Source: Candidatus Thorarchaeota archaeon (GTDB lineage: Archaea; Asgardarchaeota; Thorarchaeia; Thorarchaeales; Thorarchaeaceae). From it: DNA of 32,000 nt. Made by a program: the position numbers and the translations under genes. Shown one piece after another: positions 891 to 15,986 of the stretch. The notes beneath the pieces are model-generated. The model saw only the letters and a list, made by a program, of their open reading frames with translations. It searched no databases and had not been told where the DNA came from. The DNA lies in the NCBI GenBank assembly GCA_008080745.1, contig SHMX01000001.1:600001-632000 (forward strand). Reading direction: 5' to 3'. Positions within the stretch are counted from its first letter, which is position 1; every line of letters begins with the position of its first letter.

Positions 891-1382
891 ATGAAATCGT
901 TGAAGGGTAGAACCATTATTCTTGGTCTGGTTCTCATAATGGCTGTTAGCCTGTTACCAAGTTCTGTTGTTGCGTATTCCAGCAATAGCTCACTGTTATC
1001 AATAACCCATGCCGATTATGGTGACTTGGACGATGACGGAGCAGATGATGATGTAATTACAGAGGCCCGAATTGGGTCGCTCACCGGTTTTCCAGAATTC
1101 ATTATCTGTACAGTGACATTTACACTTACATTACCGTCAGGAGCCAATTATACAACTGACGTAGTGATATGTGGGATATATGATGTAGTAGATCTTACAA
1201 TCGAATGGTACGACCATGCAACCGAATCAGGATGGTATAAGATCCACGCAGAGATGGAATCAGTCACTATGTTATGGGAATTCTCAGCTGATGCATATGT
1301 TATATTCGACCCACCAGAAGAGGGTCCACCAGGTACACCCTGGGTAAGAGTCCTTGTAAATAACCAAGTACCCTTCTGGTAA
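891..1382 (+). CDS. Secreted hypothetical protein with acidic Ca-binding-like motif and Pro-rich C-terminus
   Basis: Signal peptide (MKSLKGR + hydrophobic stretch + VVA/YS); 'DYGDLDDDGADDD'; beta-rich body; 'DPPEEGPPGTP'. Confidence 0.75.
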   Translation: MKSLKGRTIILGLVLIMAVSLLPSSVVAYSSNSSLLSITHADYGDLDDDGADDDVITEARIGSLTGFPEFIICTVTFTLTLPSGANYTTDVVICGIYDVVDLTIEWYDHATESGWYKIHAEMESVTMLWEFSADAYVIFDPPEEGPPGTPWVRVLVNNQVPFW

Positions 1383-1411
1383 TCATGATACTTGTGGGGG
1401 AAACCACATAG

Positions 1412-2530
1412 TTGAGTAATGGCCTTACGGCCAATCATCTCAGAGTGTTAGTTGCTCTTCAACAAATACCCCTTGGTACGTATGACCAACTCTCCGAGAA
1501 AGTAGGCCTAGCAAAATCAGTAGTTTATGGATACGTCCAAGAGCTAGCAGAATGGCCTGGAACTGGAGAGTCCTACTTTGTAGTTGCTGCAAACCCACAC
1601 CTAGAAAATCTAGGACTGCAGCTAGTTGATGTACTTGTGGAGGCAGACAGTGAACCTAAGTTAGAAGCAGTCGAAAGGATTTGTCAGAAACACCCATACA
1701 CGGTATACAGAGCTAGATGTTTTGGAGACACTAATGGCATGCTAACCCAGTTCCGTATACCAATTGGAAACACAGGAAAAATAGAAGAACTCTTCGGCAA
1801 AGCATCAAAAAGAGGGGTTTGTGACGATTTCAAAATCTTACCTTTTGTCGATTCAACACCTACGTACACCACAATGGACATAGATCACTGGAACCATGAC
1901 ATAGGTCATTGGGAATTCAATTGGGAGAAATGGTTTTCAGAAGAAGCCAAACTTAATCAGCCAACAGAAACTAAGCAGGCCCTGGGCTCTGAGAAGTCTT
2001 GGCTATCTCGAGAGGACATCATCATTATTCGAGAATTGACCAAGAACGCACGACAGAAAAACAAAGACATCATGGCGACTTTGAAAAAAGCAGGAATTGA
2101 AATGACTTCTCAGGCGTTTAGCAGAAAATTAGCAAGAATCAAAAAACGATGTATCAATGGATATCGTGTTCAGATAAACCCGTTTGCATTTGATTCTTAT
2201 AATCCAGTTCTTATCTGGGGTGAAGGAAAAATCGAAGATATTCAGTCACTTCAAGCGAGAATTTCAAAGAATCCAATACCATTTACATCAACCTTCAAAA
2301 CAGACGATGGAAATCTGTTCTGGTACCTCCATCTCCCCGCAACACATCTTTCTGATCTCCTCTTTCATCTCCGTCCCATTCTACACGACCTTAGATTTAA
2401 TCACATAGACTATGTACGAAGTAGCACTTACTATCTCTGGCCGGAAACATTCAATGAGAAAGAACACGACTGGAAAAATGATTCCAATTTCATGATTGAC
2501 AGTGTCCTTGACCAGATAAGTGATCGATAA
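1412..2530 (+). CDS. Tandem (HTH + effector domain) x2 Lrp/AsnC-like transcriptional regulator
   Basis: HTH1 'LRVLVALQQIPLGTYDQLSEKVGLAKSVVYGYVQEL' followed by an Lrp-like 'NPHLENLGLQLVDVLVE'; HTH2 'REDIIIIRELTKNARQKNKDIM...SQAFSRKLARI' followed by 'GYRVQINPFAF'. TTG start. Confidence 0.7.
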   Translation: MSNGLTANHLRVLVALQQIPLGTYDQLSEKVGLAKSVVYGYVQELAEWPGTGESYFVVAANPHLENLGLQLVDVLVEADSEPKLEAVERICQKHPYTVYRARCFGDTNGMLTQFRIPIGNTGKIEELFGKASKRGVCDDFKILPFVDSTPTYTTMDIDHWNHDIGHWEFNWEKWFSEEAKLNQPTETKQALGSEKSWLSREDIIIIRELTKNARQKNKDIMATLKKAGIEMTSQAFSRKLARIKKRCINGYRVQINPFAFDSYNPVLIWGEGKIEDIQSLQARISKNPIPFTSTFKTDDGNLFWYLHLPATHLSDLLFHLRPILHDLRFNHIDYVRSSTYYLWPETFNEKEHDWKNDSNFMIDSVLDQISDR

Positions 2531-2558
2531 GGGTATGTAGCAGCCCGCAACCCGTTAT

Positions 2559-2601
2559 GGGAAATATTCGGTAAATATATATAATATGAAGAATATATCC
2601 G
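2559..2601 (+). promoter_or_regulatory. Promoter of the S8 protease gene: TATA box flanked by inverted operator boxes
   Basis: GGGAAATATTC-GGTAAATATATATAATATGAA-GAATATATCCG; GAGAGGT RBS-like motif at about 2631-2637. Confidence 0.7.
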
Positions 2602-2644
2602 CAATATCTCTAGTCTTTATGGACAATAGAGAGAGGTAAACAAA

Positions 2645-4921
2645 ATGAGAATTGAACGGAAAATGCTGGCGGCATTATTATTCATTGCCACCTTATTAAG
2701 TGTGAGCGGGCAATTCTATGGGGCACCCATTCATACACAAGTAATTGTATATGAGCCTGTAGAACAGCCATACTCACCGTCATGGGATTCTGATCTAAAC
2801 AGAATCCACGACGATCTTGATAAGAAACTCAGAGATATGAGTTTTGGTGATTCGGTAAACGTGATAGCCAAAGGCGCATCTATTGAACTACTAGAAGCTG
2901 CTGCTGCGGATTATAATTGTGAGGTCAGTTCACGATATCCAGCTATCAACGCTATAGCTCTTCAAATCGATAAACATCTAATCGATGATTTCAGCAAGGA
3001 CGTTAGAATCCATCATCTTGAGGATGCAGATCTTGAGATGAAGACGTTTCTTGACAGCTCACTAGATGTTACGGAAATACCCGAGGCGTATGCAAATTAT
3101 CCCTACCATGGTGAAGGAATGGTCATTGCCATTGTAGATACTGGTATTGACAACAGCCATATGGACCTAGATGATGACGATCCATATAATGATCATAAAG
3201 TCATAGCATTTAGGGACGTTATCAATGGTAACGACGACTTTTCATTACCCATTGATGCTTATGATGATCAAGGACATGGTACCCATTGTGCCAGCATCGC
3301 TGCTGGAACCGGTGAGGCAAGTAGCGGGCAATACAGAGGTGTTGCATATGCATCACAGCTGGTCGGCGTAAAAGTTCTGAGTGGAGAGGGCAGCGGAACA
3401 GAACAGCAAATCCTTGATGGGATGCAATGGGTCATAGACAATAAGGATGTCTATGGTATAGACATAGTCTCAATGAGTCTAGGATCAAACAGTGCAACTC
3501 CATCTGATGGAACTGATTCACTCTGTCAAATGGCTGATGCAATGATGGATGCGGGATTACTTCTATTTGTAGCGGCTGGTAATCACGGATATCCAGAGTG
3601 GTTGTATGGATACAATACTATTGGATCTCCAGCAGCTTCAGAAAAGGCAGTAACAATCGGTTCCGTTAATGATGATGGAAGCTGGTCTTCATTTAGCAAC
3701 GAGGGGCCAACAGGTGATGACCGCATTAAGCCAGATGTGATGGCAGTTGGAGCTGATGTCACAGCCGCTAAAGCTGATTCGACCAATCAGTATGTGGCAT
3801 ATTCTGGAACCAGTATGGCAACACCAACCGCAGCTGGTATTGGAGCACTTCTGCGCCAAGCAAATCCCAGTCTCAACCCATCTCAATTGAAAGATGTATT
3901 GCAGGATACTGCAATGGATATGGGAGATCCTGGAAAGGACAATACCTACGGTTCGGGAATCATTCAGACCAAGCAGGCTCTTGATGTGGTGACAGGAGGA
4001 ATAGACAATCCACCAACAGTCAGCATCGAGGCACCACTTGACCAGAGTACGGTTTCAGATACCTACCGGATTCTTGTTGCAGCTAGTGACGATAACTCTG
4101 TTACATCCGTTGAGCTTGCAATAGATGGCACTTGGATTGATATTACCGCTAATTATGATGGTACCCATTATTATTATGACTGGGATACAACCACATATTC
4201 CGAAGGACTTCACACTATATCAGCCAGGGCGACCGATGACGCAAGTCAGACTGCTGAGACCACCATTGAAGTAACGGTCTCAAACGAGGGGCCCATTGAC
4301 AATCCACCCACCTGTGTAATAGCTGATCCCACTGAGGGAGAAACAATCACAGGTACTCATAGAATTCTTGTCTCAGCAAGTGATGATAATGGCATCAATG
4401 CTATCGAGGTAAGAATCGATGGGGGAAGTTGGATTGATATAACTGGTAACTTTGACGGTGCATACTATTACTATGACTTTGATTCAACAACTGTTGATGA
4501 TGGAACACATGGAATAGAGGCAAGAGCCATTGATACCATCTCCCAGGCCACTTCTGATACGATTAGTGTCACTGTCGAAAATGAGATTGTTCAAAATGCA
4601 ATGTTTATTGCCGACATAGAGGTCAGTAGTTGGAGCTTTTGGATCTTCACTTATTGTGAAGTCGAGGTCACCATAGTGGCAGGTACACCCTCAGACTATG
4701 TGGGTCTATCTGGTGCAACGGTGAACTTGGAAACAACATCTCCACTGGGAAGTACCAAATCCTATTCTGACACTACCGACTCATCAGGTGTAGCCTACTT
4801 TGACATCGGTTGGATATCTTCAGGTACGTGGGTGTTCAAGGTAATTGATGTCACACATGCCGATTACACATATGATCCATCTCTCAACATAAACGGTGAC
4901 ACCGTAGAAGTGGATCTCTGA
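2645..4921 (+). CDS. Secreted subtilisin-like serine protease (S8) with propeptide, two Ig-like domains and a C-terminal beta-sandwich
   Basis: Signal peptide; catalytic motifs 'IVDTG', 'HGTHCA', 'AAGN', 'GTSMATP'; two 98-aa 'DNPPT...WDTT/FDST...H' Ig repeats starting at 4004 and 4298. Confidence 0.95.
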   Translation: MRIERKMLAALLFIATLLSVSGQFYGAPIHTQVIVYEPVEQPYSPSWDSDLNRIHDDLDKKLRDMSFGDSVNVIAKGASIELLEAAAADYNCEVSSRYPAINAIALQIDKHLIDDFSKDVRIHHLEDADLEMKTFLDSSLDVTEIPEAYANYPYHGEGMVIAIVDTGIDNSHMDLDDDDPYNDHKVIAFRDVINGNDDFSLPIDAYDDQGHGTHCASIAAGTGEASSGQYRGVAYASQLVGVKVLSGEGSGTEQQILDGMQWVIDNKDVYGIDIVSMSLGSNSATPSDGTDSLCQMADAMMDAGLLLFVAAGNHGYPEWLYGYNTIGSPAASEKAVTIGSVNDDGSWSSFSNEGPTGDDRIKPDVMAVGADVTAAKADSTNQYVAYSGTSMATPTAAGIGALLRQANPSLNPSQLKDVLQDTAMDMGDPGKDNTYGSGIIQTKQALDVVTGGIDNPPTVSIEAPLDQSTVSDTYRILVAASDDNSVTSVELAIDGTWIDITANYDGTHYYYDWDTTTYSEGLHTISARATDDASQTAETTIEVTVSNEGPIDNPPTCVIADPTEGETITGTHRILVSASDDNGINAIEVRIDGGSWIDITGNFDGAYYYYDFDSTTVDDGTHGIEARAIDTISQATSDTISVTVENEIVQNAMFIADIEVSSWSFWIFTYCEVEVTIVAGTPSDYVGLSGATVNLETTSPLGSTKSYSDTTDSSGVAYFDIGWISSGTWVFKVIDVTHADYTYDPSLNINGDTVEVDL

Positions 4922-4943
4922 AATCTGTAGAATATCTTCTCCC

Positions 4944-4978
4944 GGAATGAAGGTTCGTCCTTCATTCCTTTTTCTTTT
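4944..4978 (+). terminator. Hairpin plus U-tract terminator after the protease gene
   Basis: Perfect 10-bp stem GGAATGAAGG / CCTTCATTCC, loop TTCGT, followed by TTTTTCTTTT. Confidence 0.75.
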
Positions 4979-5048
4979 CAAACTGGATTCGTTTCCTTGA
5001 CTGAAAAAGAAGAGTAAGCATTACTTTTTAACAGGCTTCGATAAATGG

Positions 5049-6263
5049 ATGTCCGAGGGACGATATTTGGTTTGGTCGATTCCAAAGAGGAATACGCTCT
5101 TTTTGATTTTGATAATGGTCAGCCTTTGTTCGTCCATAACCAGTATTGAAGAATACACCTTAGCAGATCAAAACATAGAAACCCGAGCTGTCTGGCTAAA
5201 CCATTATGCCTTCAATTCTGATGCAAAACGGAATGAAACATTAGAAAAGATTCGTTCAGCAAACCTGAACACGGTATTAATGATATCTCCTCCGATAGGA
5301 GATAACAACGGTTGGTCCGAGATAGAGGATTTCTCAGAAATGCTAGAAGAGTTGGTAGAATATGACATAAGTGTACATGCTTGGATTGCCAACCTATACA
5401 GAGTAAAAGGACAAAGAGCCGATTTTAGTAACACCACGGAACAGTCAGAGCAAATCAATTGGGCATTGGAAATTCTGCGCACATATCCAAAACTCGATGG
5501 AGTTCATTTTGATTACATACGAACAGAGAATTTGGATTACGTTAATGCAACAAAAATGAACGCAATCAGTTCCGTGATTGAACACACCAAAGAGAGAATC
5601 AGAGAAGAGTTTCCCGAAAAATACCTTACCACCGCCGGATGGTCTCTATCAGGAGAGATAAGGACACCACAAGACGAGCTTCCCGAATGGTATCTCGAAT
5701 GGTTCAATCAGTATGAAGACGATCCAGTAAACAGATGGAGTAAAGCCGCTTACAGCCACAATGGACATCCCACATGTTTTGGTGTTCAGCAAGATCCTGT
5801 AATTTGGCTATCTCAAGGCGAATTGGATTTTCACATCTCGATGGAGTATTGTTATGAAACAGACTGGTGGACAGGTGAAGTGGATATCTGGAATACCTTC
5901 CCCTACGAGGTGGTGGAACATATCTTCATGGGACTTGGTTGGTATTCAGGAGTTTGGGAGGAGGAGAGCTACACAGAAGAAATGGTTGCAACAGAGATTG
6001 TGAATAAGATTCAGTACGGCAGATCTCATAAAATCACAGGATTCAGTATATTCGAACTTGGTGAGCCTTACAACAATGATAGTATTCTAATCTCGAAACT
6101 GGCAGGAGATGAAAATGATCCATTCTGGAACAAGGCAATATCCGGATTCAAAGCTGAATCTCATAGTCCTATTGACCTTTTCCAAGAGAATATCTTCCCA
6201 ATAGCTCTGATAGGAATCATATCACTAGTTGTTGTATATGCAATCAAAAGGAAGAGAAAATAA
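5049..6263 (+). CDS. Exported glycoside hydrolase-like family 10 (GHL10/DUF187, YddW/DigH-like) protein with C-terminal membrane anchor
   Basis: 'RAVWL...NLNTV', 'ISVHAWI' and 'LDGVHFDYIR' motifs; N-terminal hydrophobic signal; C-terminal TM plus KRKRK. Confidence 0.75.
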   Translation: MSEGRYLVWSIPKRNTLFLILIMVSLCSSITSIEEYTLADQNIETRAVWLNHYAFNSDAKRNETLEKIRSANLNTVLMISPPIGDNNGWSEIEDFSEMLEELVEYDISVHAWIANLYRVKGQRADFSNTTEQSEQINWALEILRTYPKLDGVHFDYIRTENLDYVNATKMNAISSVIEHTKERIREEFPEKYLTTAGWSLSGEIRTPQDELPEWYLEWFNQYEDDPVNRWSKAAYSHNGHPTCFGVQQDPVIWLSQGELDFHISMEYCYETDWWTGEVDIWNTFPYEVVEHIFMGLGWYSGVWEEESYTEEMVATEIVNKIQYGRSHKITGFSIFELGEPYNNDSILISKLAGDENDPFWNKAISGFKAESHSPIDLFQENIFPIALIGIISLVVVYAIKRKRK

Positions 6264-6264
6264 G

Positions 6265-6296
6265 AAAAAAGGAACCTCAGAGGGGTTCCTTTTTTT
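6265..6296. terminator. Bidirectional hairpin terminator between the convergent GHL10 and esterase genes
   Basis: AAAAAAGGAACCTC-AGA-GGGGTTCCTTTTTT: stem with an A-run before and a T-run after. Confidence 0.75.
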
Positions 6297-6301
6297 ACAT
6301 G

Positions 6302-8479
6302 TTATTCTATCTGTTTTCGAATTATATCAAAGATAGAGAAATCCAATAGGATGTTAGAACCAGTGGTTTGGTATGTCAGAGTCACCGTAAGTTCATAGGA
6401 TCCCGATCCCCAATAACTATGGACCATGATATACATGACCCCAGTAGAGGGGTTTTCAATGGTGATATCCTCGCCACCCCATGTACTTGCCTTGAAGTCA
6501 TAGTTAGAAGTAGTTGGCTCGGAACCCATTTTACCATATATGTCAAAATCTGTGAACCATCCAGAAGATAGTTGAACTCGCATTGACACACAGTCTTGAT
6601 CGATTACTATGAACCAAACTTCACTTGATCCACTGGAAAGGGAACCACCAACCGGAACTCCATTCTCCAGTTCATTCTCTACAGCATTTAGCACTTGCAC
6701 CGTGATTTCAGCTGACCCAACATTTCCTGCTGCATCTGCTGCCTCACAAGTAATTATGTGGTCTCCATCGGTATAACTGGTAGTATCCCAGGTAAAGGAG
6801 GAATCAGTAGAAACCTCAATACCATCAATCAATATGCGATAACTAGTCACACCTACATCATCAGTTGCAGAAAAATCGATGTTTGCATTTCCAGACACGG
6901 TTGCTCCATCAACAGGGGATAGAATTTCTACCTCTGGAGGAGTAGTATCAATATATGAATTATCAACTACAACAGAGATTGACGAACTTCCAAGATTGCC
7001 ACTAGTATCAATAGCCTCACAAAGAATAGTATGATATCCATCTTCGTAAGTTTCCGTGTCCCACAGGTAGTGGGTTTCGGCAGATACTGAAATACCATCA
7101 ATCTTGATACAGTATGAGTCAACACCCTTGTCATCTTCTGCTGAGAAGATTATTTCAACGACATCCTTCACAGTTGCACCATCTGTTGGTTGACTAATTG
7201 TTACTACAGGCAGGGAATCATCTATATTATCGACAGTAACAGATATCTCTTCAGAACCCTGGTTGCCCAATGTATCGATTGCTTCGCACCGTATGAAGTG
7301 GGTACCATCGGACCATCCAGTTGAGTCCCAGTGGTATGTGTTCGATTCTGATACAAGAACATCATCAATGTAGGTCTTTATTTCTGAAACACCGCTTTCA
7401 TCTTGAGCTGAAAAGCTAATAGTAACGATGCCATCCACAATAGAACCGTCAGTGGGGGATTCAATTGTTATTGTTGGAGGAGTCTGATCGATTCCTTCAT
7501 GAGTACGAGCCTCAACGATTCCTGCATTTACATCAGCATCGAGCTCTTCACCAAAAAGATACTTATGAAATGATACATCACCAACTAAGAAATATTGAAG
7601 ATGAGCTATAGCATATTTACAAGCAAGTCTATGGTGTTCCTCAAGACTTATTGTAGGACTATTATCACCCATTCCGCTATTTTCATCCATGTATTGATAG
7701 TGATTTGCACCAACTATACCAATAAAGATCTTTGACACATCTGAGAGTGTACCATATACATAATCAGGATCGTTTCTAGCAACGTCATCCAATGTTCCTT
7801 TTTGAATCATTCCAGGAACATCAATTCCAGCAACCTCATCATACATATCAGGATCAGGCTGTCCAGGAAACATATTCGTCTTGTTTGCAGGAGCCATCGC
7901 AATAAATGTGCTGATTCGAGAATCACGATTTGTTGCCAACAATATAGCCCGAGCTCCCATTGAGTAGCCTACTGCAGCAAACTTTGATACATCGAACATT
8001 CCTGCGAGGAAATAGGAAGTATCAGCGTTCCTATTAATCACCCAATCAATACAATCAGAAATATCCTGTGCATTTCTTTCATGATTAGTTGAAAACAACC
8101 CATCACTAAAGTCAATGACAGCAACTATGTAACCCCAGCTTGCCTGCCATTCTGCATACCACTCATATTGAGATGGATCAGAATTGAATCCCCTCCCAAA
8201 TATGACGACAGGATATGGAGCGTTATCCTGTGAAGGATTTGTATCAGTACCACCTTCTGTTGCAGGATAGTATAATTCAACGTCTATGGTGTACCCAGAT
8301 TCATCCACGAAACTTCCTGTTGTGAACCCTACTTGATAGGCACCAGGAGAATCAGGAGAAGTTGTAGAGAGTCTACTAAATCTGACAGCAACACTTTCTG
8401 TGGAAGTCTGAAAGCCAGAATACAGGACTCCACTAGTAATGATGGTCAGAAGTAGTAAGATAGCAAATGTCTTTTTCAT
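6302..8479 (-). CDS. Secreted alpha/beta hydrolase (cutinase/PETase/chlorophyllase-like) with three Ig-like domains and a PPC domain
   Basis: Signal peptide; 'PYPVVIFGRGF', 'ASWGYIVAVID', nucleophile 'VGYSMGA', acid 'GTLDDVA', His 'GANHY'; three '(D)xxPP/LP...WD(S/T)...DG.H.I.CEA' repeats; PPC-like 'DFDIYGKMGSEPTTSNYD...YIMVHSY'. Confidence 0.85.
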   Translation of the reverse strand: MKKTFAILLLLTIITSGVLYSGFQTSTESVAVRFSRLSTTSPDSPGAYQVGFTTGSFVDESGYTIDVELYYPATEGGTDTNPSQDNAPYPVVIFGRGFNSDPSQYEWYAEWQASWGYIVAVIDFSDGLFSTNHERNAQDISDCIDWVINRNADTSYFLAGMFDVSKFAAVGYSMGARAILLATNRDSRISTFIAMAPANKTNMFPGQPDPDMYDEVAGIDVPGMIQKGTLDDVARNDPDYVYGTLSDVSKIFIGIVGANHYQYMDENSGMGDNSPTISLEEHHRLACKYAIAHLQYFLVGDVSFHKYLFGEELDADVNAGIVEARTHEGIDQTPPTITIESPTDGSIVDGIVTISFSAQDESGVSEIKTYIDDVLVSESNTYHWDSTGWSDGTHFIRCEAIDTLGNQGSEEISVTVDNIDDSLPVVTISQPTDGATVKDVVEIIFSAEDDKGVDSYCIKIDGISVSAETHYLWDTETYEDGYHTILCEAIDTSGNLGSSSISVVVDNSYIDTTPPEVEILSPVDGATVSGNANIDFSATDDVGVTSYRILIDGIEVSTDSSFTWDTTSYTDGDHIITCEAADAAGNVGSAEITVQVLNAVENELENGVPVGGSLSSGSSEVWFIVIDQDCVSMRVQLSSGWFTDFDIYGKMGSEPTTSNYDFKASTWGGEDITIENPSTGVMYIMVHSYWGSGSYELTVTLTYQTTGSNILLDFSIFDIIRKQIE

Positions 8480-8501: not shown

Positions 8502-8544
8502 GGGAAATATTCTTTTAATTATATATATCTGCCGAATATTTCCC
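8502..8544 (-). promoter_or_regulatory. Promoter of the esterase gene: TATA box flanked by a perfect 11-bp inverted repeat
   Basis: Minus strand reads GGGAAATATTC-GGCAGATATATATAATTAAAA-GAATATTTCCC, ending 22 nt before the ATG. Confidence 0.75.
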
Positions 8545-8951: not shown

Positions 8952-9027
8952 AGGAAATATACACTGTAATCATTGGTGTGTATCTAAGGTTATCATAGAG
9001 GAGATGGCCTTAATCAGGAAATATACA
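8952..9027 (+). repeat. 12-bp direct repeat AGGAAATATACA (8952-8963 and 9016-9027) upstream of the giant surface protein gene
   Basis: Two exact copies 64 bp apart; shares the GGAAATAT core with the protease/esterase boxes. Confidence 0.6.
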
Positions 9028-9043: not shown

Positions 9044-12000
9044 ATGCGATGGCGTCGCTTGACCCCTGTTCTAGCCCTGATGTTTCTATTAGTTGGTTCA
9101 ACCTTATCAGGCTATCCAGCGATAGATGATGAGCAAGAGAATCAATCTGAACCGAATAGGGCGGAGAGTTCAGTACCGGACAACAGAAATGAAGGGGTCA
9201 ACCCAAAGAGGATATTAACAGAGGGTGGTTCAAAGACAGGTGTTCTAGAACCATTATTAGTGGAAACCATAGGTTATTACTCAACGGGAACTATCAGCAC
9301 GATTACTGCACCGGGTTTTAATGAAACCTTCGGGCTCCCAATTGATACAGATAACAACTGGAAAGCAAGTCTAACCGAAATCAGTTTGTGGAATCTTGAA
9401 CGACTCTATGCGATTAATGGAACGTTTGATGATGGAATTCCAGGATTCAACCAAAATCCCAATGGGTCAGTATCATATTATCCATATGGCTGGGATGCGT
9501 ATAGCAATAACACAGACCCAGATAGCGAACAGATTCAAACGGCTGGATATGATACAACTACACCATCATATATCAAATTGGAAAACCAAGGAAAGAAAGA
9601 CGGACCGTCAGGAAGGAAATTCGACCATTTTGCGGGGACATGGGTAAATTGGATACAGACCGTTAGCAACACACCATTGATTCAAAATTTCATACTAAAT
9701 TTTGATTACATTTACACATCTGGTCCGCTACATAGATCAGGCGGTGTATCTCTTGATGGTAATTGTTCACTAAAAATCTATGTGAACAATACGGAGGCAT
9801 GGAGCCAGACCCTGACTACACTTGACTCTCGAGGAACTTGGTATGAAAGTGGCGCGATTAATATCAGCCTTTCCACAGTAGGAAACTTCGATTTTAAAAT
9901 CGTATTAGAGATTGATAAAAACTTCAATGACCTAAATGCAGAGAATGATTATGATAATGATGGAATCGATGATGGGATAGCAAATGCTGCTTACATTACA
10001 GTTAACGTAGACAACGTCCATCTTATTGGAGAAATTCCTCCAACGCCAGAAAGTGTTGGGCTTCAATTTGAGGCGAATACTAATTCCACTAATATAGAAG
10101 GGTCATCAGGAATAGGAAACGCAACAATACAATCGGAAAGTTACTGGACAGATTCACCAGTTAACATCACATTATCATCCAATGTCAGCGTATCATACGA
10201 TTATGAATCTAGACTACTAAACCACAGATTTACAAATTCATCGTGGACTACAGATAATTCAAAGCAAGGTATTGCCTATTCTATAGAACCCAATTCCAGC
10301 TCAAATAATGAATTATACTTCTACCTTGGTTCAACAAGCACCTATGAAGACCAAGAGATATTTTTGTATTATCCAAAGGATTGGGATAATGCCACGATAT
10401 ATGACCCATTTCTTAATGATGTTACTTCACAGTGTACAATTACAAGTGGAGAGATTACGATTCCCACATCACTATTCAGTAGGTTAGGTTGGTGGGAAAT
10501 TACAATAGACTCACCCAATTATGCTGCAAATGCAACAGTTCAAAAATATGACAGCTCACTAGGACAATGGGAAAATAGTTCTACGTTCAGAAGCGGAAAC
10601 GAAACCAGAGCAACGATAGAGATTAGGCATAACACAGACCAACCCATTTTACAACATCCAGTTAATGTTTCACTCATAATGCCAAATGGAACGGTCTGGG
10701 CTGATGATTCCACTACTAATGATATAGGATACACGGTAAACACAAGCTCATGGACATTGGATGGACTAAACACAACAGCAGGTCAATGGTTCTATGATTA
10801 CATTTGGAGTAATGGAACTGAAGTAGCGTATGGAACTACACACTTAGAGTTGTACCATGCATCAACTTTGACACCAATCAATTCCCTTATTGAAACAGAC
10901 CATGGGTTAGTTGTAACTAACTTCATTCAGTTTGTGGACGCAGATAATGGTCAATATTTGATGAGTGATGCAGCCACAATCAAAGGTAATTGGTCAGGAA
11001 GCTTTGTCAACTTCGAACCAAATCTACTAAGAAATTGGTGGGAAGGAAGCTTTGATACCTCACTTGCGTCTAACGGTCAATTCACGGTAGTAGTAAATGC
11101 CTCACAACCATATTATGACTCTGTCAGTTGTCAATTCGTTATCGAGTCAATATATCCAACTTTGTTTACACTGACCAATGTAGGATCTGACCCTGTTGAA
11201 ACTGAAGTGTTTATGGATGAATCAATAGATTTGACCTACACTTTTGAAAATGGAACCGGAATTGTCGGTGCAGATATTCAGATGAGCTACTCGGGACCAT
11301 CAGGAGGACTAAACCAAGGAACAACAAATGATCATGGAGATGGAAACTATACAGTTACTATTACCACTCTTCAAACAGGGACCTATACAGTCACTCTGAC
11401 CGGAGTTAAAGACTACTACGAAACAACTCAAAAATCATTCACTCTTCTTGTGGGTAAGATAGATACTGACTTGACAAGTATGAATGGAACCTCAGATATA
11501 CAAGAAGTATTCCAGAGTTACAATCTCACAGTATTTTACGAGAACTCAACAGGAGATGGTCTGGGAGAATCTACTGTTCAAATAACTTCGATGTCGCCAA
11601 GCTCAGGAGTGTCCTATGGTGCTTTTGTAGATGATACAAATGGCTATTATTCAATCGAACTGACTCCAATGCAGGCTGAAACATACACATTCACTATACA
11701 AGCTAACCTATCTAATCATGAAACACAGACAACAACCTTTGTCTTAGCGGTCACACAAGTTCAGACTTCACTTACTGTAAACTTTTCGTCCGTAAGTATG
11801 GGTCTTACAGACACACTATTTGTTCAGGCATCCTATGTAGATGTCTACTCAAATGGACTTGAATCTGCAACAATCTCAGTTATAGATCAACCCGCAGCAA
11901 TTTCAGTAGATATCCAAGAGGGAGTGAATGGTAACTACTCGATTTCAATTCAATCATCACTGGTTGGCACATATATTCTAAGATTCTCAGCAAATCGAAC

Positions 12001-15000
12001 TAATTACGAAACGAGTTATGCTTCATTTTCACTGACGGTTAACCCAATTGGAACCAATTTCCAAAGTGTTAACGGAACTTCTGGGATAGTGGAGATTCTT
12101 GATGAGTATAGGCTAGTTGTCAGATATACGAACAGTACGGGATATGGTTTGGATGGAGCAAATATCCAAATTACAGCTGTAACCCCAACGACGGGGCTTG
12201 CAAATACATCATTTTCATATCTCTATGATGGGTACTATTACATTTTATTGACACCTGAAAATAAGAATACATTCACCATCGAAATCAGAGCAGAACGTCT
12301 GAATCATGCTACCAGAATTCTAACTTTTACTCTTAGTGGTTCAGAAATCCCCACAACACTTACAGCTAATATAACAAGTGCAACACTACCTGTTTATGAT
12401 TCAATAGAAGTACAGGTATCATTTGTAGATAAATATTCAAATGGTATAGAAGGAGCAACAATTAGCATAATAAATCAACCAGTAAATGTTAGTGTGACCA
12501 TTCAAGAGGTATCCGATGGAAACTATACTCTCACCTTGAGCGCTAATCTTCAAGGAACGTATCTCATAAAGGTGGGAGCCAATCGGTCAAATTACGATGA
12601 TGGAATTACCTCATTCTCACTGGTATTTGAACCAAAGGCATCGTCACTTCTTCGGGTTAATGGAACATCAGGTATAATGCAAGTCAATCAGTCGTATAGA
12701 TTAGTCATTCAATATCTAAATGGTACTGGATCTGGACTGGAAAATGCAACAACAACCATAGTTGAAATTTCACCATCCATAGGATTATCATATGGTGCTT
12801 TTAGTGAGGAGGCAGAAGGGTATTATTCGATATATCTATCCCCACAAAACACTGAAACATTCACCATTGTGATTAGAGCAAATATTACAAATCATGTCAC
12901 CCAAACAACTACTTTCACCTTGACCGGATCGGAGATTCCCACATCTTTTGTATTCAACATAACCAGCGCCACAATCGCTATTTCTGACGTTCTGGATGTC
13001 CAAGCTTCTTTCGAAGACTTCAATGGTAACGGATTAGATGGGGCCACATTGAATCTTGTTGATTCATATTCTGGATTAGATATCGGTATCACGGAAGTAA
13101 ATGATGGAAATTATACCATCACTGTGATTGCTAACGAGTCTGGAAGTTACTTGATAACTATAGCTGCTAGTGTCCCGAACTACCAGAGTCAAGTGAAATC
13201 ATTTTCTGTTATTGTAGAGTCCATTGGAACAAAAATACAAATCCTGAATGGTTCTTCTGCAATGATACAATATGGAGAAAATTATTCTGTTGTGATTCAA
13301 TACACTAACAATACAGGGTATGGTCTTGATGATGCAAATATTACTGTTCTAAGTATTAATCCAGAGGGAGGTATGAGTGTTGATGATGCAATACCTTTGG
13401 GAGAGGGATGTTTCCAGGTTGTCCTGAAACCAACCCTAACTGCCACCTACTCGATCCTCTTTCAAGCAAATCGAACAAATCACGTCACAAGAACCATAAC
13501 ATTCACATTGACTGTGAGCGACATCCCATCCATTCTTACTGTAAACACTGGAAGTAAAACAATTGCTTTGGATCAGACTTACACATTACAACTAATTTTC
13601 ACTGATGAGGATATAATGCCTCTTGACTCTGCCACGATTATTGTATTAGACCCACCCAATAGTCTCGAGTTCTCTGATGTGATTTCATTAGGCTCGGGAA
13701 AATATAACATCACAATAACACCAAGTGTAATTGGAGCATATACTCTTGCATTTCGGGCCGTTCAATCAAATTATGAGAATGCAACAGTTGGATTCAGCCT
13801 TATAATAATTGAAATCCCAACAGAGCTTTCATTCATGGGAGAATCATCCGCTTCGATTAGATTCAAAGATTCCTATGAGATAGTTATTCAATATATAAGA
13901 ACAGACTTGGTAGAAAATATCACAGAGGCTCAAATCAACTTTTACACAACCGACTCTGAAGGGCTAAATATTACAATCTCTGAGCTGGACGGACTATATT
14001 ATGTGAGAATTACAGCTTCATCTACGGGAACATGGACCCTGACTGTATCTGCATCCAGAAACAATTATCAGTCAAAATCGAAACAGTTCATACTAGAAGT
14101 TCAAAATATAGAAACAGAAACAATTCCCAATTATGACTTGGGACAAGTAGTCTATGGACGAGTCTATGAAATAGTAGCTGAATATATTTTCTCAAATAAC
14201 GAGAGTCATATTATCAATGCAAATTCAATTGTATTAGGCGACTCTATAGAATGGTTCGAAATCGTCAATTCGGAGAATGGTAGTTATATCATCAAACTGA
14301 ACCCCAATGCGTTAGGAAGATATCAGACAACAATTAGGTTGGAAAAAGAGGGATTTGAATCTCAAAGATTTCTGATTGACTACACAGTGGTTCAAGTCCC
14401 AATAGATGTTGAAGTCCTCTCATCGATGAGTGTTATGGAGGGAATGGACTTTGAGGTGAGAATAAGACTTTTTGAGAGTGACACCGGGAACCCAATAAGT
14501 GAAGCGGATGTCACTTGTGGAATCTCTCTAAATGGTAATGAGCCATCAAACGAAATCGAGATGACAGAGATAGAAGCTGGAATTTATGTTGCGACTATTA
14601 CCATGCCAATCGCATATGGTGAAGAAACCTACACATTGAGAATATTTGTGGATAAGGAATATCATACTTTGGAGGACACCTATTTTGAAACTAACCTTAT
14701 ACCCAGGTATAATGATAGTGCACGATTAACAGCAGCGGTTGTAGGCTGGTCGCCAATAATAGCTTTATTGATTGGCGGCCCATTGTTTCTTATAGTAGGA
14801 TATCGAATCTATGACAAGCGAAAACGGACTAGAATTCTTAGAAATCAAGCCGTTAAACGTCAGTTCGATGATTTACATAACCTGATTGGAGTTCTAGTTC
14901 TTCATAGGTCTAGCGGATTGCCGGTCTACTCAAAATTCCTTCGTGGAGGCTTTGATGAAGCCATGATATCTGCATTCATCACAGCTGTAACACAATTCAG

Positions 15001-15493
15001 GTTGGAGGTTGAACAGGAAAGCGAGATACCTGATGATGCACTAATCCCAGTGTCTGATATTATCAGAGTGATCTCAACAGAAACGCTAATCTGTGCATTC
15101 ATCACGGTACGAAGTCCTTCAATGTTCCATAGGGAGAAAATGATTGAATTTGGAGAAACAGTAGGAAATCAGTTTGATGAGATATTCAGACTGACTCCAG
15201 CAGAGGTTCTTGATGGAGATACACAAGATAGATTCGATGCCCTTTTTGATGAGATACTTGACGGAGCACTGCTGAAGAAATATAGACTTGATGATGATAA
15301 AGCAATTCCAAGAGATATGAGATGCCTAGAATTGGGCGCAGATGCCATGGAAAAGGGAGAGCTCGATCTTGATGAGTTGGCCAAGAAGATGGCAATGTGC
15401 GGACTTGAAGAGGGGAGGGTGTATTATCTAATCATGGAAGCTATAAAGAAAGACCTCATAAAACCTGTTGAAGGCTCTGCAGACACATACTAA
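9044..15493 (+). CDS. Giant type I membrane/cell-surface protein (2149 aa): signal peptide, large ectodomain with tandem Ig-like repeats, single TM, cytoplasmic longin-like plus winged-helix-like tail
   Basis: Many N-x-S/T sequons; alternating Ig-like repeats; TM about 14732-14803 followed by basic 'DKRKRTR'; 'LIGVLVLHRSSGLPVYSK...DEAMISAFITAVTQF' resembles a longin beta-beta-alpha start. Confidence 0.85.
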   Translation: MRWRRLTPVLALMFLLVGSTLSGYPAIDDEQENQSEPNRAESSVPDNRNEGVNPKRILTEGGSKTGVLEPLLVETIGYYSTGTISTITAPGFNETFGLPIDTDNNWKASLTEISLWNLERLYAINGTFDDGIPGFNQNPNGSVSYYPYGWDAYSNNTDPDSEQIQTAGYDTTTPSYIKLENQGKKDGPSGRKFDHFAGTWVNWIQTVSNTPLIQNFILNFDYIYTSGPLHRSGGVSLDGNCSLKIYVNNTEAWSQTLTTLDSRGTWYESGAINISLSTVGNFDFKIVLEIDKNFNDLNAENDYDNDGIDDGIANAAYITVNVDNVHLIGEIPPTPESVGLQFEANTNSTNIEGSSGIGNATIQSESYWTDSPVNITLSSNVSVSYDYESRLLNHRFTNSSWTTDNSKQGIAYSIEPNSSSNNELYFYLGSTSTYEDQEIFLYYPKDWDNATIYDPFLNDVTSQCTITSGEITIPTSLFSRLGWWEITIDSPNYAANATVQKYDSSLGQWENSSTFRSGNETRATIEIRHNTDQPILQHPVNVSLIMPNGTVWADDSTTNDIGYTVNTSSWTLDGLNTTAGQWFYDYIWSNGTEVAYGTTHLELYHASTLTPINSLIETDHGLVVTNFIQFVDADNGQYLMSDAATIKGNWSGSFVNFEPNLLRNWWEGSFDTSLASNGQFTVVVNASQPYYDSVSCQFVIESIYPTLFTLTNVGSDPVETEVFMDESIDLTYTFENGTGIVGADIQMSYSGPSGGLNQGTTNDHGDGNYTVTITTLQTGTYTVTLTGVKDYYETTQKSFTLLVGKIDTDLTSMNGTSDIQEVFQSYNLTVFYENSTGDGLGESTVQITSMSPSSGVSYGAFVDDTNGYYSIELTPMQAETYTFTIQANLSNHETQTTTFVLAVTQVQTSLTVNFSSVSMGLTDTLFVQASYVDVYSNGLESATISVIDQPAAISVDIQEGVNGNYSISIQSSLVGTYILRFSANRTNYETSYASFSLTVNPIGTNFQSVNGTSGIVEILDEYRLVVRYTNSTGYGLDGANIQITAVTPTTGLANTSFSYLYDGYYYILLTPENKNTFTIEIRAERLNHATRILTFTLSGSEIPTTLTANITSATLPVYDSIEVQVSFVDKYSNGIEGATISIINQPVNVSVTIQEVSDGNYTLTLSANLQGTYLIKVGANRSNYDDGITSFSLVFEPKASSLLRVNGTSGIMQVNQSYRLVIQYLNGTGSGLENATTTIVEISPSIGLSYGAFSEEAEGYYSIYLSPQNTETFTIVIRANITNHVTQTTTFTLTGSEIPTSFVFNITSATIAISDVLDVQASFEDFNGNGLDGATLNLVDSYSGLDIGITEVNDGNYTITVIANESGSYLITIAASVPNYQSQVKSFSVIVESIGTKIQILNGSSAMIQYGENYSVVIQYTNNTGYGLDDANITVLSINPEGGMSVDDAIPLGEGCFQVVLKPTLTATYSILFQANRTNHVTRTITFTLTVSDIPSILTVNTGSKTIALDQTYTLQLIFTDEDIMPLDSATIIVLDPPNSLEFSDVISLGSGKYNITITPSVIGAYTLAFRAVQSNYENATVGFSLIIIEIPTELSFMGESSASIRFKDSYEIVIQYIRTDLVENITEAQINFYTTDSEGLNITISELDGLYYVRITASSTGTWTLTVSASRNNYQSKSKQFILEVQNIETETIPNYDLGQVVYGRVYEIVAEYIFSNNESHIINANSIVLGDSIEWFEIVNSENGSYIIKLNPNALGRYQTTIRLEKEGFESQRFLIDYTVVQVPIDVEVLSSMSVMEGMDFEVRIRLFESDTGNPISEADVTCGISLNGNEPSNEIEMTEIEAGIYVATITMPIAYGEETYTLRIFVDKEYHTLEDTYFETNLIPRYNDSARLTAAVVGWSPIIALLIGGPLFLIVGYRIYDKRKRTRILRNQAVKRQFDDLHNLIGVLVLHRSSGLPVYSKFLRGGFDEAMISAFITAVTQFRLEVEQESEIPDDALIPVSDIIRVISTETLICAFITVRSPSMFHREKMIEFGETVGNQFDEIFRLTPAEVLDGDTQDRFDALFDEILDGALLKKYRLDDDKAIPRDMRCLELGADAMEKGELDLDELAKKMAMCGLEEGRVYYLIMEAIKKDLIKPVEGSADTY
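11460..14105 (+). repeat. Intragenic tandem repeat of a two-domain (A+B) Ig-like unit with 588-nt (196-aa) period; four full units plus an extra A
   Basis: Asn codons of the NG(T/S)S motif at 11483, 12071, 12659 and 13247, exactly 588 nt apart; copies are diverged at DNA level. Confidence 0.85.
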
Positions 15494-15554
15494 TGACAAT
15501 GCTTTCGCTTCTAAATCGAAAGAATCCTTTATGAGATGTGTCATAATCAAAATC

Positions 15555-15986
15555 ATGAAAACGCGGGTGTTATATTTGGGACTAGAGGGAAAATCTCGGA
15601 GACAAGTTTTGGCAATAATCGGATGTATAGTTCAATTAGGTTTTGGAGTGTGGCATTTTGCTGTTCCAAATCTCTATGACTGGTATACATACCTTCAAGA
15701 TATTCCACAGGAACTCATCAATGGTATAAACGCAACGAACTTTTTCCTTTCAGCTTTGATGACATTAACAGCCATCTATGCAATGTACATCTTCATCACA
15801 TCATGGGATCTTATAAAAAACCGAGATGCGCTGCTCATCATCCTATCCATCTTGTGGGTCTCACGCACAGGATATCAATTAGTTGTACCGCAGGGTACTA
15901 TGATTCCGGGATTATCAACAGTATTGCTAGTAGTATTCGGCCTCACTGCTTTGACCTTCATCATACCTTTACTTGGGAGAGAATAA
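15555..15986 (+). CDS. Hypothetical membrane protein (about 4 TM)
   Basis: Hydrophobic helices; ATG at 15555 avoids overlap with the upstream gene; stop lies 1 nt before the DUF362 start. Confidence 0.65.
   Translation: MKTRVLYLGLEGKSRRQVLAIIGCIVQLGFGVWHFAVPNLYDWYTYLQDIPQELINGINATNFFLSALMTLTAIYAMYIFITSWDLIKNRDALLIILSILWVSRTGYQLVVPQGTMIPGLSTVLLVVFGLTALTFIIPLLGRE

Follow-up and report, generated by a model that had tools for sequence, protein, structure and literature searches.

A giant Thorarchaeota surface protein with a predicted longin-type cytoplasmic domain

Asgard archaea encode dozens of small GTPases together with longin and roadblock proteins, and the gene described here raises the question of whether any of this machinery is physically connected to the cell surface. 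The gene lies in a 32,000-nucleotide (nt) stretch of DNA from Candidatus Thorarchaeota archaeon (assembly GCA_008080745.1, contig SHMX01000001.1, positions 600,001-632,000; hereafter the window, whose own positions serve as coordinates), where a single open reading frame (ORF) on the plus strand, 9044-15493, encodes a protein of 2149 amino acids (aa). A first-pass annotation of the window, made from the sequence and its ORFs, had read the product as an adhesin-receptor that couples surface contact to GTPase or membrane-remodelling machinery: a sequon-rich ectodomain of immunoglobulin (Ig)-like repeats, one transmembrane (TM) helix, a basic juxtamembrane helix, a longin-like domain and a winged-helix-like end. 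The analyses below support the topology, the Ig-like ectodomain and a longin-type fold for the tail, and leave the coupling itself as one of several candidate functions.

Architecture and topology of the encoded protein

Hydropathy analysis of the 2149-aa protein identified two hydrophobic segments only, a signal-like stretch at residues 6-27, immediately following MRWRR, and a TM helix at residues 1895-1923. The protein contains 61 NxS/T sequons. Every one of them precedes the TM helix, and the 225-aa tail (residues 1925-2149) is free of them; the 60 ectodomain sequons are about twice the number found in composition-preserving shuffles (31.9 +/- 4.7). The same asymmetry is seen in 119 full-length relatives: their ectodomains, 150,419 residues in all, carry 3709 sequons and their tails, 28,039 residues in all, carry 24, a 29-fold depletion accompanied by a drop in Asn content of only 2.5-fold. 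The residues that follow the TM helix are RIYDKRKRTRILRNQAVKRQ, and the first 22 residues of the tail have a net charge of +6. Because of the sequon distribution and the positive-inside rule, the N-terminus is placed outside the cell and the tail in the cytoplasm, and the protein is predicted to be a type I, heavily N-glycosylated surface protein of a Thorarchaeota-type Asgard archaeon. Hydropathy, sequon counts and charge thus confirmed the sequon-rich ectodomain, single TM helix and basic juxtamembrane helix of the first-pass annotation, as well as its placement of the tail inside the cell; an extracellular tail, also considered, found no support.

The membrane-proximal part of the ectodomain is a repetitive stalk. 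Within the region of residues 745-1855, Pfam profiles matched above their curated cut-offs for Big_1 (44.4 bits, cut-off 34.9), Filamin (44.9 bits, cut-off 26.9), CarboxypepD_reg (52.1 bits, cut-off 32.3) and YtkA (35.5 bits, cut-off 25.9), and these tandem Ig-like matches identify the stalk as a series of bacterial-type Ig-like repeats. BLAST comparison of segments against the whole protein resolved approximately 11-12 tandem repeats of about 97 aa each, starting at residue 705; they alternate between two types, with the pattern recurring about every 196 aa, and share 26-53% identity. The Ig-repeat ectodomain claimed in the first pass is borne out by both the Pfam domains and the self-similarity. 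A precomputed PF21868 (GbpA_D3) label could not be reproduced.

The head of the protein, encompassing approximately its first 700 residues, has no internal repeats, no Pfam match above cut-off and no NCBIfam match. A protein-atlas feature search returned weak Big_1-type leads for it (scores of 0.81 or less), and it is homologous to the heads of two paralogs in the same genome with 46-54% identity.

Tandem Ig-like stalks, N-glycosylation and a C-terminal anchor are also found in bacterial Big_1 adhesins (invasin/intimin) and in archaeal anchored surface-layer glycoproteins. These proteins, however, end at the anchor, and none of them carries a conserved, folded cytoplasmic module of a longin and a winged-helix domain; with the archaeal surface-layer (S-layer) glycoprotein, the only sequence features in common are the sequons and the C-terminal anchor. 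The likeness to integrins and Ig-type cell adhesion molecules is one of layout alone, a glycosylated modular ectodomain followed by a single TM pass and a tail able to recruit machinery. No part is homologous to them, their eukaryotic tails are short linear-motif peptides rather than a folded longin, and a functional likeness would be an analogy.

Fold and conservation of the cytoplasmic tail

The tail yielded no Pfam match at E <= 0.1 and no NCBIfam match, a sequence-profile search of the PDB returned nothing below E 0.15, and Pfam searches across 86 homologous tails gave no consistent result, with MAPKK1_Int matching three members at E >= 0.031. Robl_LC7 (PF03259) is absent from the tail, though it matches at 16 other places in the genome.

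AlphaFold2, run on the alignment of 86 tails, produced a model with a mean predicted local distance difference test score (pLDDT) of 87.1 and a predicted template modelling score of 0.83. In tail numbering, used from here on for tail residues, a juxtamembrane helix continues from the membrane through residues 2-22 (pLDDT 90-93) and is followed by strands at 23-30, 36-41, 83-87 and 91-97 with a short bridge at 77-78, by helices at 48-65, 103-120 and 134-147, and then by a small alpha/beta unit. The resulting order of elements, beta-beta-alpha-beta-beta-beta-alpha-alpha, is that of longins. A Foldseek search of the PDB with this model returned longin and roadblock proteins only (E 5e-4 to 1e-2), and in a structural search independent of Foldseek all of the first 49 matches were longin or roadblock proteins (Z 7.6-10.9).

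Pairwise comparison with VIA-align gave the highest score to the TRAPP subunit Trs20 (7kmt_K; Z 12.0, root-mean-square deviation [rmsd] 2.9 over 121 residues, the whole target domain), followed by sedlin (2j3w; Z 11.3, rmsd 3.2, 123 residues), Fuzzy (Z 10.9, rmsd 3.2, 120 residues), Roadblock3 of Prometheoarchaeum MK-D1 (Z 10.9, rmsd 2.2, 99 residues), Sec22b (1ifq; Z 10.8, rmsd 3.3, 120 residues), MglB (Z 10.5, rmsd 2.4, 103 residues) and the VAMP7 longin (Z 10.5). Longin targets cover model residues 22-150, including both C-terminal helices, whereas roadblock targets align from residue 18-19, at beta1, to about residue 123, and the juxtamembrane helix is not superposed on the roadblock alpha1. 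For this reason the element order is assigned to the longin type, and a longin-type fold for the tail domain is supported by the model. The longin-like domain proposed in the first pass at nt 14880-15190 corresponds to the modelled core from beta1 to alpha2 (tail residues 22-125, from nt 14882); with alpha3 included, the domain would end at about nt 15256. The prediction and fold searches agree with that proposal, and no result argued for a fold other than a longin/profilin-like one.

The modelled domain shares element order and size with a broad set of eukaryotic longins, including Trs20/sedlin, TRAPPC4/synbindin, the sigma and N-terminal mu domains of AP adaptors, zeta/delta-COP, Sec22b, VAMP7, Fuzzy, Mon1-Ccz1 and SRX, with Z scores of 9-12 over 115-125 residues that span whole target domains. 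Membrane attachment, too, is shared by some of them: by the longin SNAREs, and by SRX via SR-beta. There is, however, no detectable sequence relation to them and no SNARE motif, coat or TRAPP context, and here the domain stands C-terminal to the TM helix of a giant glycoprotein of type I, with a winged-helix-like domain after it. Proteins of the Roadblock/LC7-MglB-LAMTOR group (MK-D1 Roadblock3, 9JUE; Thorarchaeota SMTZ1-45, 7F8M) share the core sheet with the lowest rmsd (Z 10.9, rmsd 2.1-2.2, about 100 residues), and the SGLP hairpin of the tail resembles their DGLP hairpin. The tail differs from them in lacking a Robl_LC7 match, in having, in the model, two C-terminal helices after the sheet, as longins do, and in being tethered to the membrane instead of forming a free small dimer; the alignments begin at beta1, so its N-terminal helix does not appear to take the place of the roadblock alpha1. 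A third group, folliculin, NPRL2, SMCR8 and the Asgard folliculin-like longins (PMC12290439), has the same fold, a conserved Gly/Pro in the beta1-beta2 loop and an Arg nearby in sequence. It is set apart from the tail by a GP motif in place of G-x-P, by lower scores (Z 8.0-9.2) and by the DENN or NPRL2 C-terminal part and linked Rag/Arf genes, none of which the present protein has.

The alignment of 86 tails contains four invariant residues (G34, F54, A57 and F61) and 17 nearly invariant ones, among them P36, R62 and, in the juxtamembrane helix, D19. Conservation peaks in beta1-beta2-alpha1 and in beta5, and includes the SGLP hairpin and a FITA..FR.E helix within the longin domain. Judged by strand order, a conserved pole should be made up of the hairpin of beta1 and beta2 with its SGLP motif, the last part of helix alpha1 (F61, R62, E64) and the beta4-beta5 turn. 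A joint prediction of two tail copies gave a score of 0.22 (mark 0.42) and is not evidence either way. Elsewhere in the window, a methyltransferase operon includes an ORF at 20096-20818 (+) for a soluble 240-aa protein. Its N-terminal domain is related to the longin core of the tail (hhalign E 9e-5, probability 59%) and has the HKSGLP motif in common with it, and further soluble longin-like ORFs are found at contig 7, 43746.

The end of the tail was modelled alone (pLDDT 84.6); in the numbering of that model, strands lie at 28-31 and 88-90 and helices at 39-49, 58-66 and 72-84. Its best structural matches were the TbtB RRE (Z 7.2), the SAMD1 winged helix (Z 6.0), MecI (Z 5.7) and the MCM winged helix (Z 5.5). 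All top matches are winged-helix or RRE domains, and all are weak (Z 5.0-7.2; Foldseek E >= 0.12), so that winged-helix-like, as the first pass had called it, is acceptable as a fold label for the model while its support is weaker than that for the longin domain. The end domain is acidic, with a net charge of -4 (family mean -2.3), and shows the lowest conservation within the tail; DNA binding by it is unlikely. A distant relative of 1959 aa (positions 1153-7032 (-) of the locus examined) holds a second copy of this segment, with profile positions 131-176 matched twice.

Distribution in Asgard archaea and candidate functions

A scan with the tail against 1.84 billion representative proteins retrieved 135 clusters at 50% identity, 84 of them below 1e-30. 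In the long matches, proteins of 1000-2300 aa, the tail forms the C-terminus, and the short ones look like fragments. Named homologs are assigned to 'Candidatus Thorarchaeota archaeon' and annotated as hypothetical protein, the exceptions being one Lokiarchaeota record, two Promethearchaeota records and three automatic domain-based product names. When a single tail was used to search for related loci, only the same-genus ortholog, from Promethearchaeota archaeon RBin_111, was recovered. Across the phylum, 357 of 400 genomes have a match at E <= 1e-5, and full-length matches at E < 1e-60 are essentially restricted to the gene's own family, where they occur in 83 of 85 genomes, with one to seven per genome and often in tandem. 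In five genomes inspected from other Asgard families, the weaker matches sit mostly within ORFs of 600-2000 aa, and eight of ten distant loci encode a TM helix whose end precedes the profile start by 6-21 residues. A spacing of 6-14 residues between a TM helix and the start of the tail profile is also seen in relatives. Four distant proteins inspected in full measure 1350-1991 aa and hold 37-60 sequons each; in three a TM helix is clearly present immediately ahead of the tail, and Ig-like domains (Big_1/MG) come before the membrane in three. An atlas fold search also returned unannotated Promethearchaeota clusters (354, 70 and 54 members) with TM-scores of 0.81-0.84 over the whole tail. From these comparisons the architecture is phylum-wide, with the present sequence family as its Thorarchaeota branch. 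The census and the diverged tails that follow a TM helix in ORFs of 1000-2000 aa in other Asgard families bear out the earlier expectation of a wider Asgard family, which is unannotated.

The genome itself (3.16 Mb, 98% complete, with an archaeal 16S gene) contains 16 Roadblock/LC7 and 32 Ras-family matches and three full copies of the giant gene: the one at 9044-15493, one located 20 kb downstream on the opposite strand, and one on contig 3. The copies are homologous from end to end, with 46-54% identity in the head, 30-43% in the repeats and 38-44% in the tail. The nearby paralog (contig 1, 634455-640351 (-)) is split: a 349-aa ORF matching head residues 64-274 with 34% identity overlaps the start of a 1647-aa ORF that contains the remainder, which points to a frameshift, a pseudogene or an assembly error.

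A short DNA box, GGAAATATWC, is present in six copies in the window, where 0.23 would be expected. Five of the six lie in promoter regions, those of a secreted subtilase, of a PETase-like esterase and of the giant gene, a distribution that suggests a single regulator for a set of genes for the cell surface and external digestion.

We give a little better than an even chance to the reading in which the gene encodes a surface glycoprotein whose tail is a docking platform. The head is held off the cell by the stalk of 11-12 Ig-like domains, and the ectodomain would act as an adhesin or envelope protein that binds particles, polymers, substrates or partner cells, probably being co-expressed with the secreted protease, esterase and glycosidase encoded nearby. 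A rigid basic helix passes directly from the TM helix into the longin domain; the tail would serve as a protein-docking platform close to the membrane, and the conserved pole of this platform would recruit a soluble cytoplasmic partner to wherever the surface protein is located. In favour of this reading are the longin-type fold, the family-wide constraint on the tail, the conservation of TM helix, short spacer and tail in distant Asgard families, the many candidate partners in the genome, the box shared with the hydrolase promoters, and the complex surface proteins of cultured Asgard cells, which lack an ordered S-layer (PMC9834061). Small GTPases and roadblock/longin proteins of the genome would be the most plausible class of partner, because such folds act in this way in TRAPP, Ragulator, MglB and the longins of GTPase-activating proteins (GAPs) as well as those of guanine nucleotide exchange factors.

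Several observations weigh against the docking-platform reading. The fold by itself shows no function, and coupling to a GTPase would be deduced from that fold by analogy. The tail has no match to any of the curated longin profiles (Longin, Sedlin_N, Sybindin, Clat_adaptor_s) and no sequence-level match to a longin, roadblock or GTPase-regulator family; aligned by hhalign with the roadblock proteins of the genome, its profile falls in register with a probability of only 12.5%. That the conserved residues gather at one pole follows from the order of the strands and not from coordinates, and for the suggested co-regulation a short DNA box is the only basis. Neither the gene nor its two paralogs, its ortholog and three further relatives have a GTPase, roadblock or cytoskeletal gene linked to them, and all 32 Ras-family genes lie at least 27 kb from the gene. 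The adhesin-receptor of the first-pass annotation stands in its topology, its glycosylated Ig-like ectodomain and its longin fold, and not in the coupling to GTPases or membrane-remodelling machinery; no GTPase or roadblock gene is linked at the loci examined, and the sequence of the tail shows no recognised GTPase-regulator signature. A true outside-in receptor, in which contact of the ectodomain with a particle or partner cell changes the clustering or orientation of the rigidly connected longin platform and the platform then recruits or regulates a small GTPase or cytoskeletal factor, is unlikely; if true, the eukaryotic coupling of adhesion receptors to GTPases would have had a forerunner in archaea.

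A somewhat unlikely explanation is that the protein is a passive envelope scaffold, a coat glycoprotein in place of an S-layer whose tail anchors or clusters copies and has no part in signalling or GTPase control. The one to seven paralogs per genome, often in tandem, the heavy glycosylation and the lack of any linked signalling gene would all be in keeping with this, as would the cultured Asgard cells, which have no ordered S-layer and display many complex surface proteins (PMC9834061), and the common occurrence of longin and roadblock domains as dimers or lattices (PMC10933270). A plain anchor, however, needs no two-domain tail of 225 aa with invariant surface-loop residues maintained across Asgard families, and a spread of 936-2342 aa in ectodomain length fits a regular lattice poorly. 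The longin domain could also be a sorting tag, read by trafficking, secretion or budding machinery that directs the glycoprotein to protrusions or extracellular vesicles. The longin of Sec22b is read by Sec23/24 and that of VAMP7 by AP-3, eukaryotic membrane-anchored longin SNAREs in general are sorted via their longin domain, and Sec22b and VAMP7 are among the best structural matches of the tail. Against this, no coat or adaptor genes are linked to the gene, there is no SNARE motif, and a type I protein with a C-terminal longin does not have the orientation of the longin SNAREs, all of which makes a sorting tag quite improbable.

Two further explanations assign the tail a more specific biochemical activity. 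It might be a membrane-tethered GAP-type longin related to the catalytic longins of folliculin, NPRL2 and SMCR8, whose catalytic arginines are R164 in FLCN, R78 in NPRL2 and R147 in SMCR8. GAP longins have a GP motif in the loop before beta2, beside the arginine finger (PMC12290439), and in the tail the invariant G34 and nearly invariant P36 fall exactly at the place of this motif, with the nearly invariant R62 also present; the structural search also includes Lst4 (Z 9.2), GATOR1 (Z 8.7) and folliculin-complex longins (Z 8.0). The motif of the tail, however, is G-L-P (SGLP, with L35 in between) and not GP, a DGLP-like hairpin is also found in ordinary roadblock proteins, and the scores are below those of TRAPP, AP and roadblock targets (Z 10-12). 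R62 lies at the end of alpha1, its match to the arginine finger is putative, Pfam NPR2 has no match in the genome, and no Rag or Arf gene is near any of the loci examined (the gene within about 27 kb, the paralogs, the ortholog and the three relatives), so that GAP activity of this type seems improbable. A membrane-tethered transcription regulator, whose winged helix would bind DNA under control from the surface in the manner of ToxR/CadC, would agree with the resemblance of the end domain to MecI/BlaI, Fur and histone H5 at Z 5-6. The same domain is acidic and the least conserved of the tail, and its weak matches are led by peptide-binding RRE domains, making such a regulator extremely improbable.

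Previous work provides the repertoire in which the docking-platform reading would have to be placed. A total of 130 roadblock/longin Asgard clusters of orthologous genes (asCOGs) have been delineated, along with many Asgard-specific fusions, including NPRL2-like longins with a small C-terminal domain in most Thorarchaeota metagenome-assembled genomes (Liu et al., 10.1101/2020.10.19.343400). Structures of soluble Asgard roadblock proteins have been solved (Tran et al., PMC10933270), and the GP motif has been described together with Asgard folliculin-like longins (PMC12290439). In the papers searched, no account turned up of a longin anchored by a TM helix under a giant ectodomain, and an asCOG label (Liu et al.) for the tail is possible. 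The protein is an architectural variant within the known Asgard longin/roadblock repertoire. The variant offers a testable physical link between the Asgard cell surface and eukaryote-like GTPase/longin machinery. Should the tail bind a GTPase or a cytoskeletal factor, longin platforms tethered to membranes would be older than eukaryotic endomembranes; should it not, the family would still mark proteins that are likely to be major parts of the envelope in Thorarchaeota and other Asgard lineages.

Locus layout and neighbouring genes

The coordinates of the segments of the giant gene, of the promoter boxes and of two neighbouring ORFs are collected in Table 1.

Table 1. Features of the giant gene and its surroundings, in window positions.
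Feature	Coordinates	Strand	Basis or remark
Box GGAAATATAC, two direct copies 5' of the start codon	8953-8962, 9017-9026	+	Candidate regulator site
Other copies of GGAAATATWC	2560-2569, 8503-8512, 8534-8543, 25497-25506		
Start codon and signal-peptide-like N-terminus, MRWRRLTPVLALMFLLVGSTLSGY...	9044-9115	+	Hydrophobic residues 6-27 after basic n-region
Ectodomain head, non-repetitive and sequon-rich, about residues 25-704	9116-11155	+	No internal repeats
Stalk of about 11-12 Ig-like repeats (residues 705 to about 1860), then short linker to membrane	11156-14725	+	Pfam, self-BLAST
Single TM helix, residues 1895-1923	14726-14812	+	Kyte-Doolittle 2.11
Basic juxtamembrane helix, residues 1924-1946, leading straight into longin beta1	14813-14881	+	AlphaFold2, net charge
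Predicted cytoplasmic longin-type domain, residues 1947-2071	14882-15256	+	AlphaFold2, structural matches
Acidic winged-helix-like domain (residues 2072-2141), short unconserved end and stop	15257-15493	+	Modelled alone
Small membrane protein ORF (172 aa, about four TM helices)	15468-15986	+	Overlaps 3' end of giant gene by 26 nt
787-aa protein, possible 7TM receptor-like	24564-26927	-	Weak 7TMR-DISM_7TM match, E 8e-4, below cut-off

The 172-aa ORF that overlaps the giant gene was considered as a partner and ruled out, as it encodes a small membrane protein and is missing at the locus of the ortholog, where DUF362, also found downstream of the present gene, follows directly. One paralog is flanked by a DUF5700 peptidase and an MFS transporter, the other by folE2 and PTPS. 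A conserved operon partner was likewise sought across the two paralogs, the ortholog and three relatives, and only lineage-specific synteny was found (PEMT/ICMT-like; folE2/PTPS). In two syntenic Thorarchaeota contigs, relatives have a gene for a PEMT/ICMT-like membrane methyltransferase immediately upstream of them and on the same strand (9250-9888 and 9200-9793 of the loci examined).

A search for sequencing runs gave only two DNA runs, from marine sediment that is probably the source sample, and no RNA run. The 16S rRNA match of the genome extends over 2411 nt (contig 2, 589938-592348), against a model of 1478 positions, and the gene probably contains an intron or insertion.

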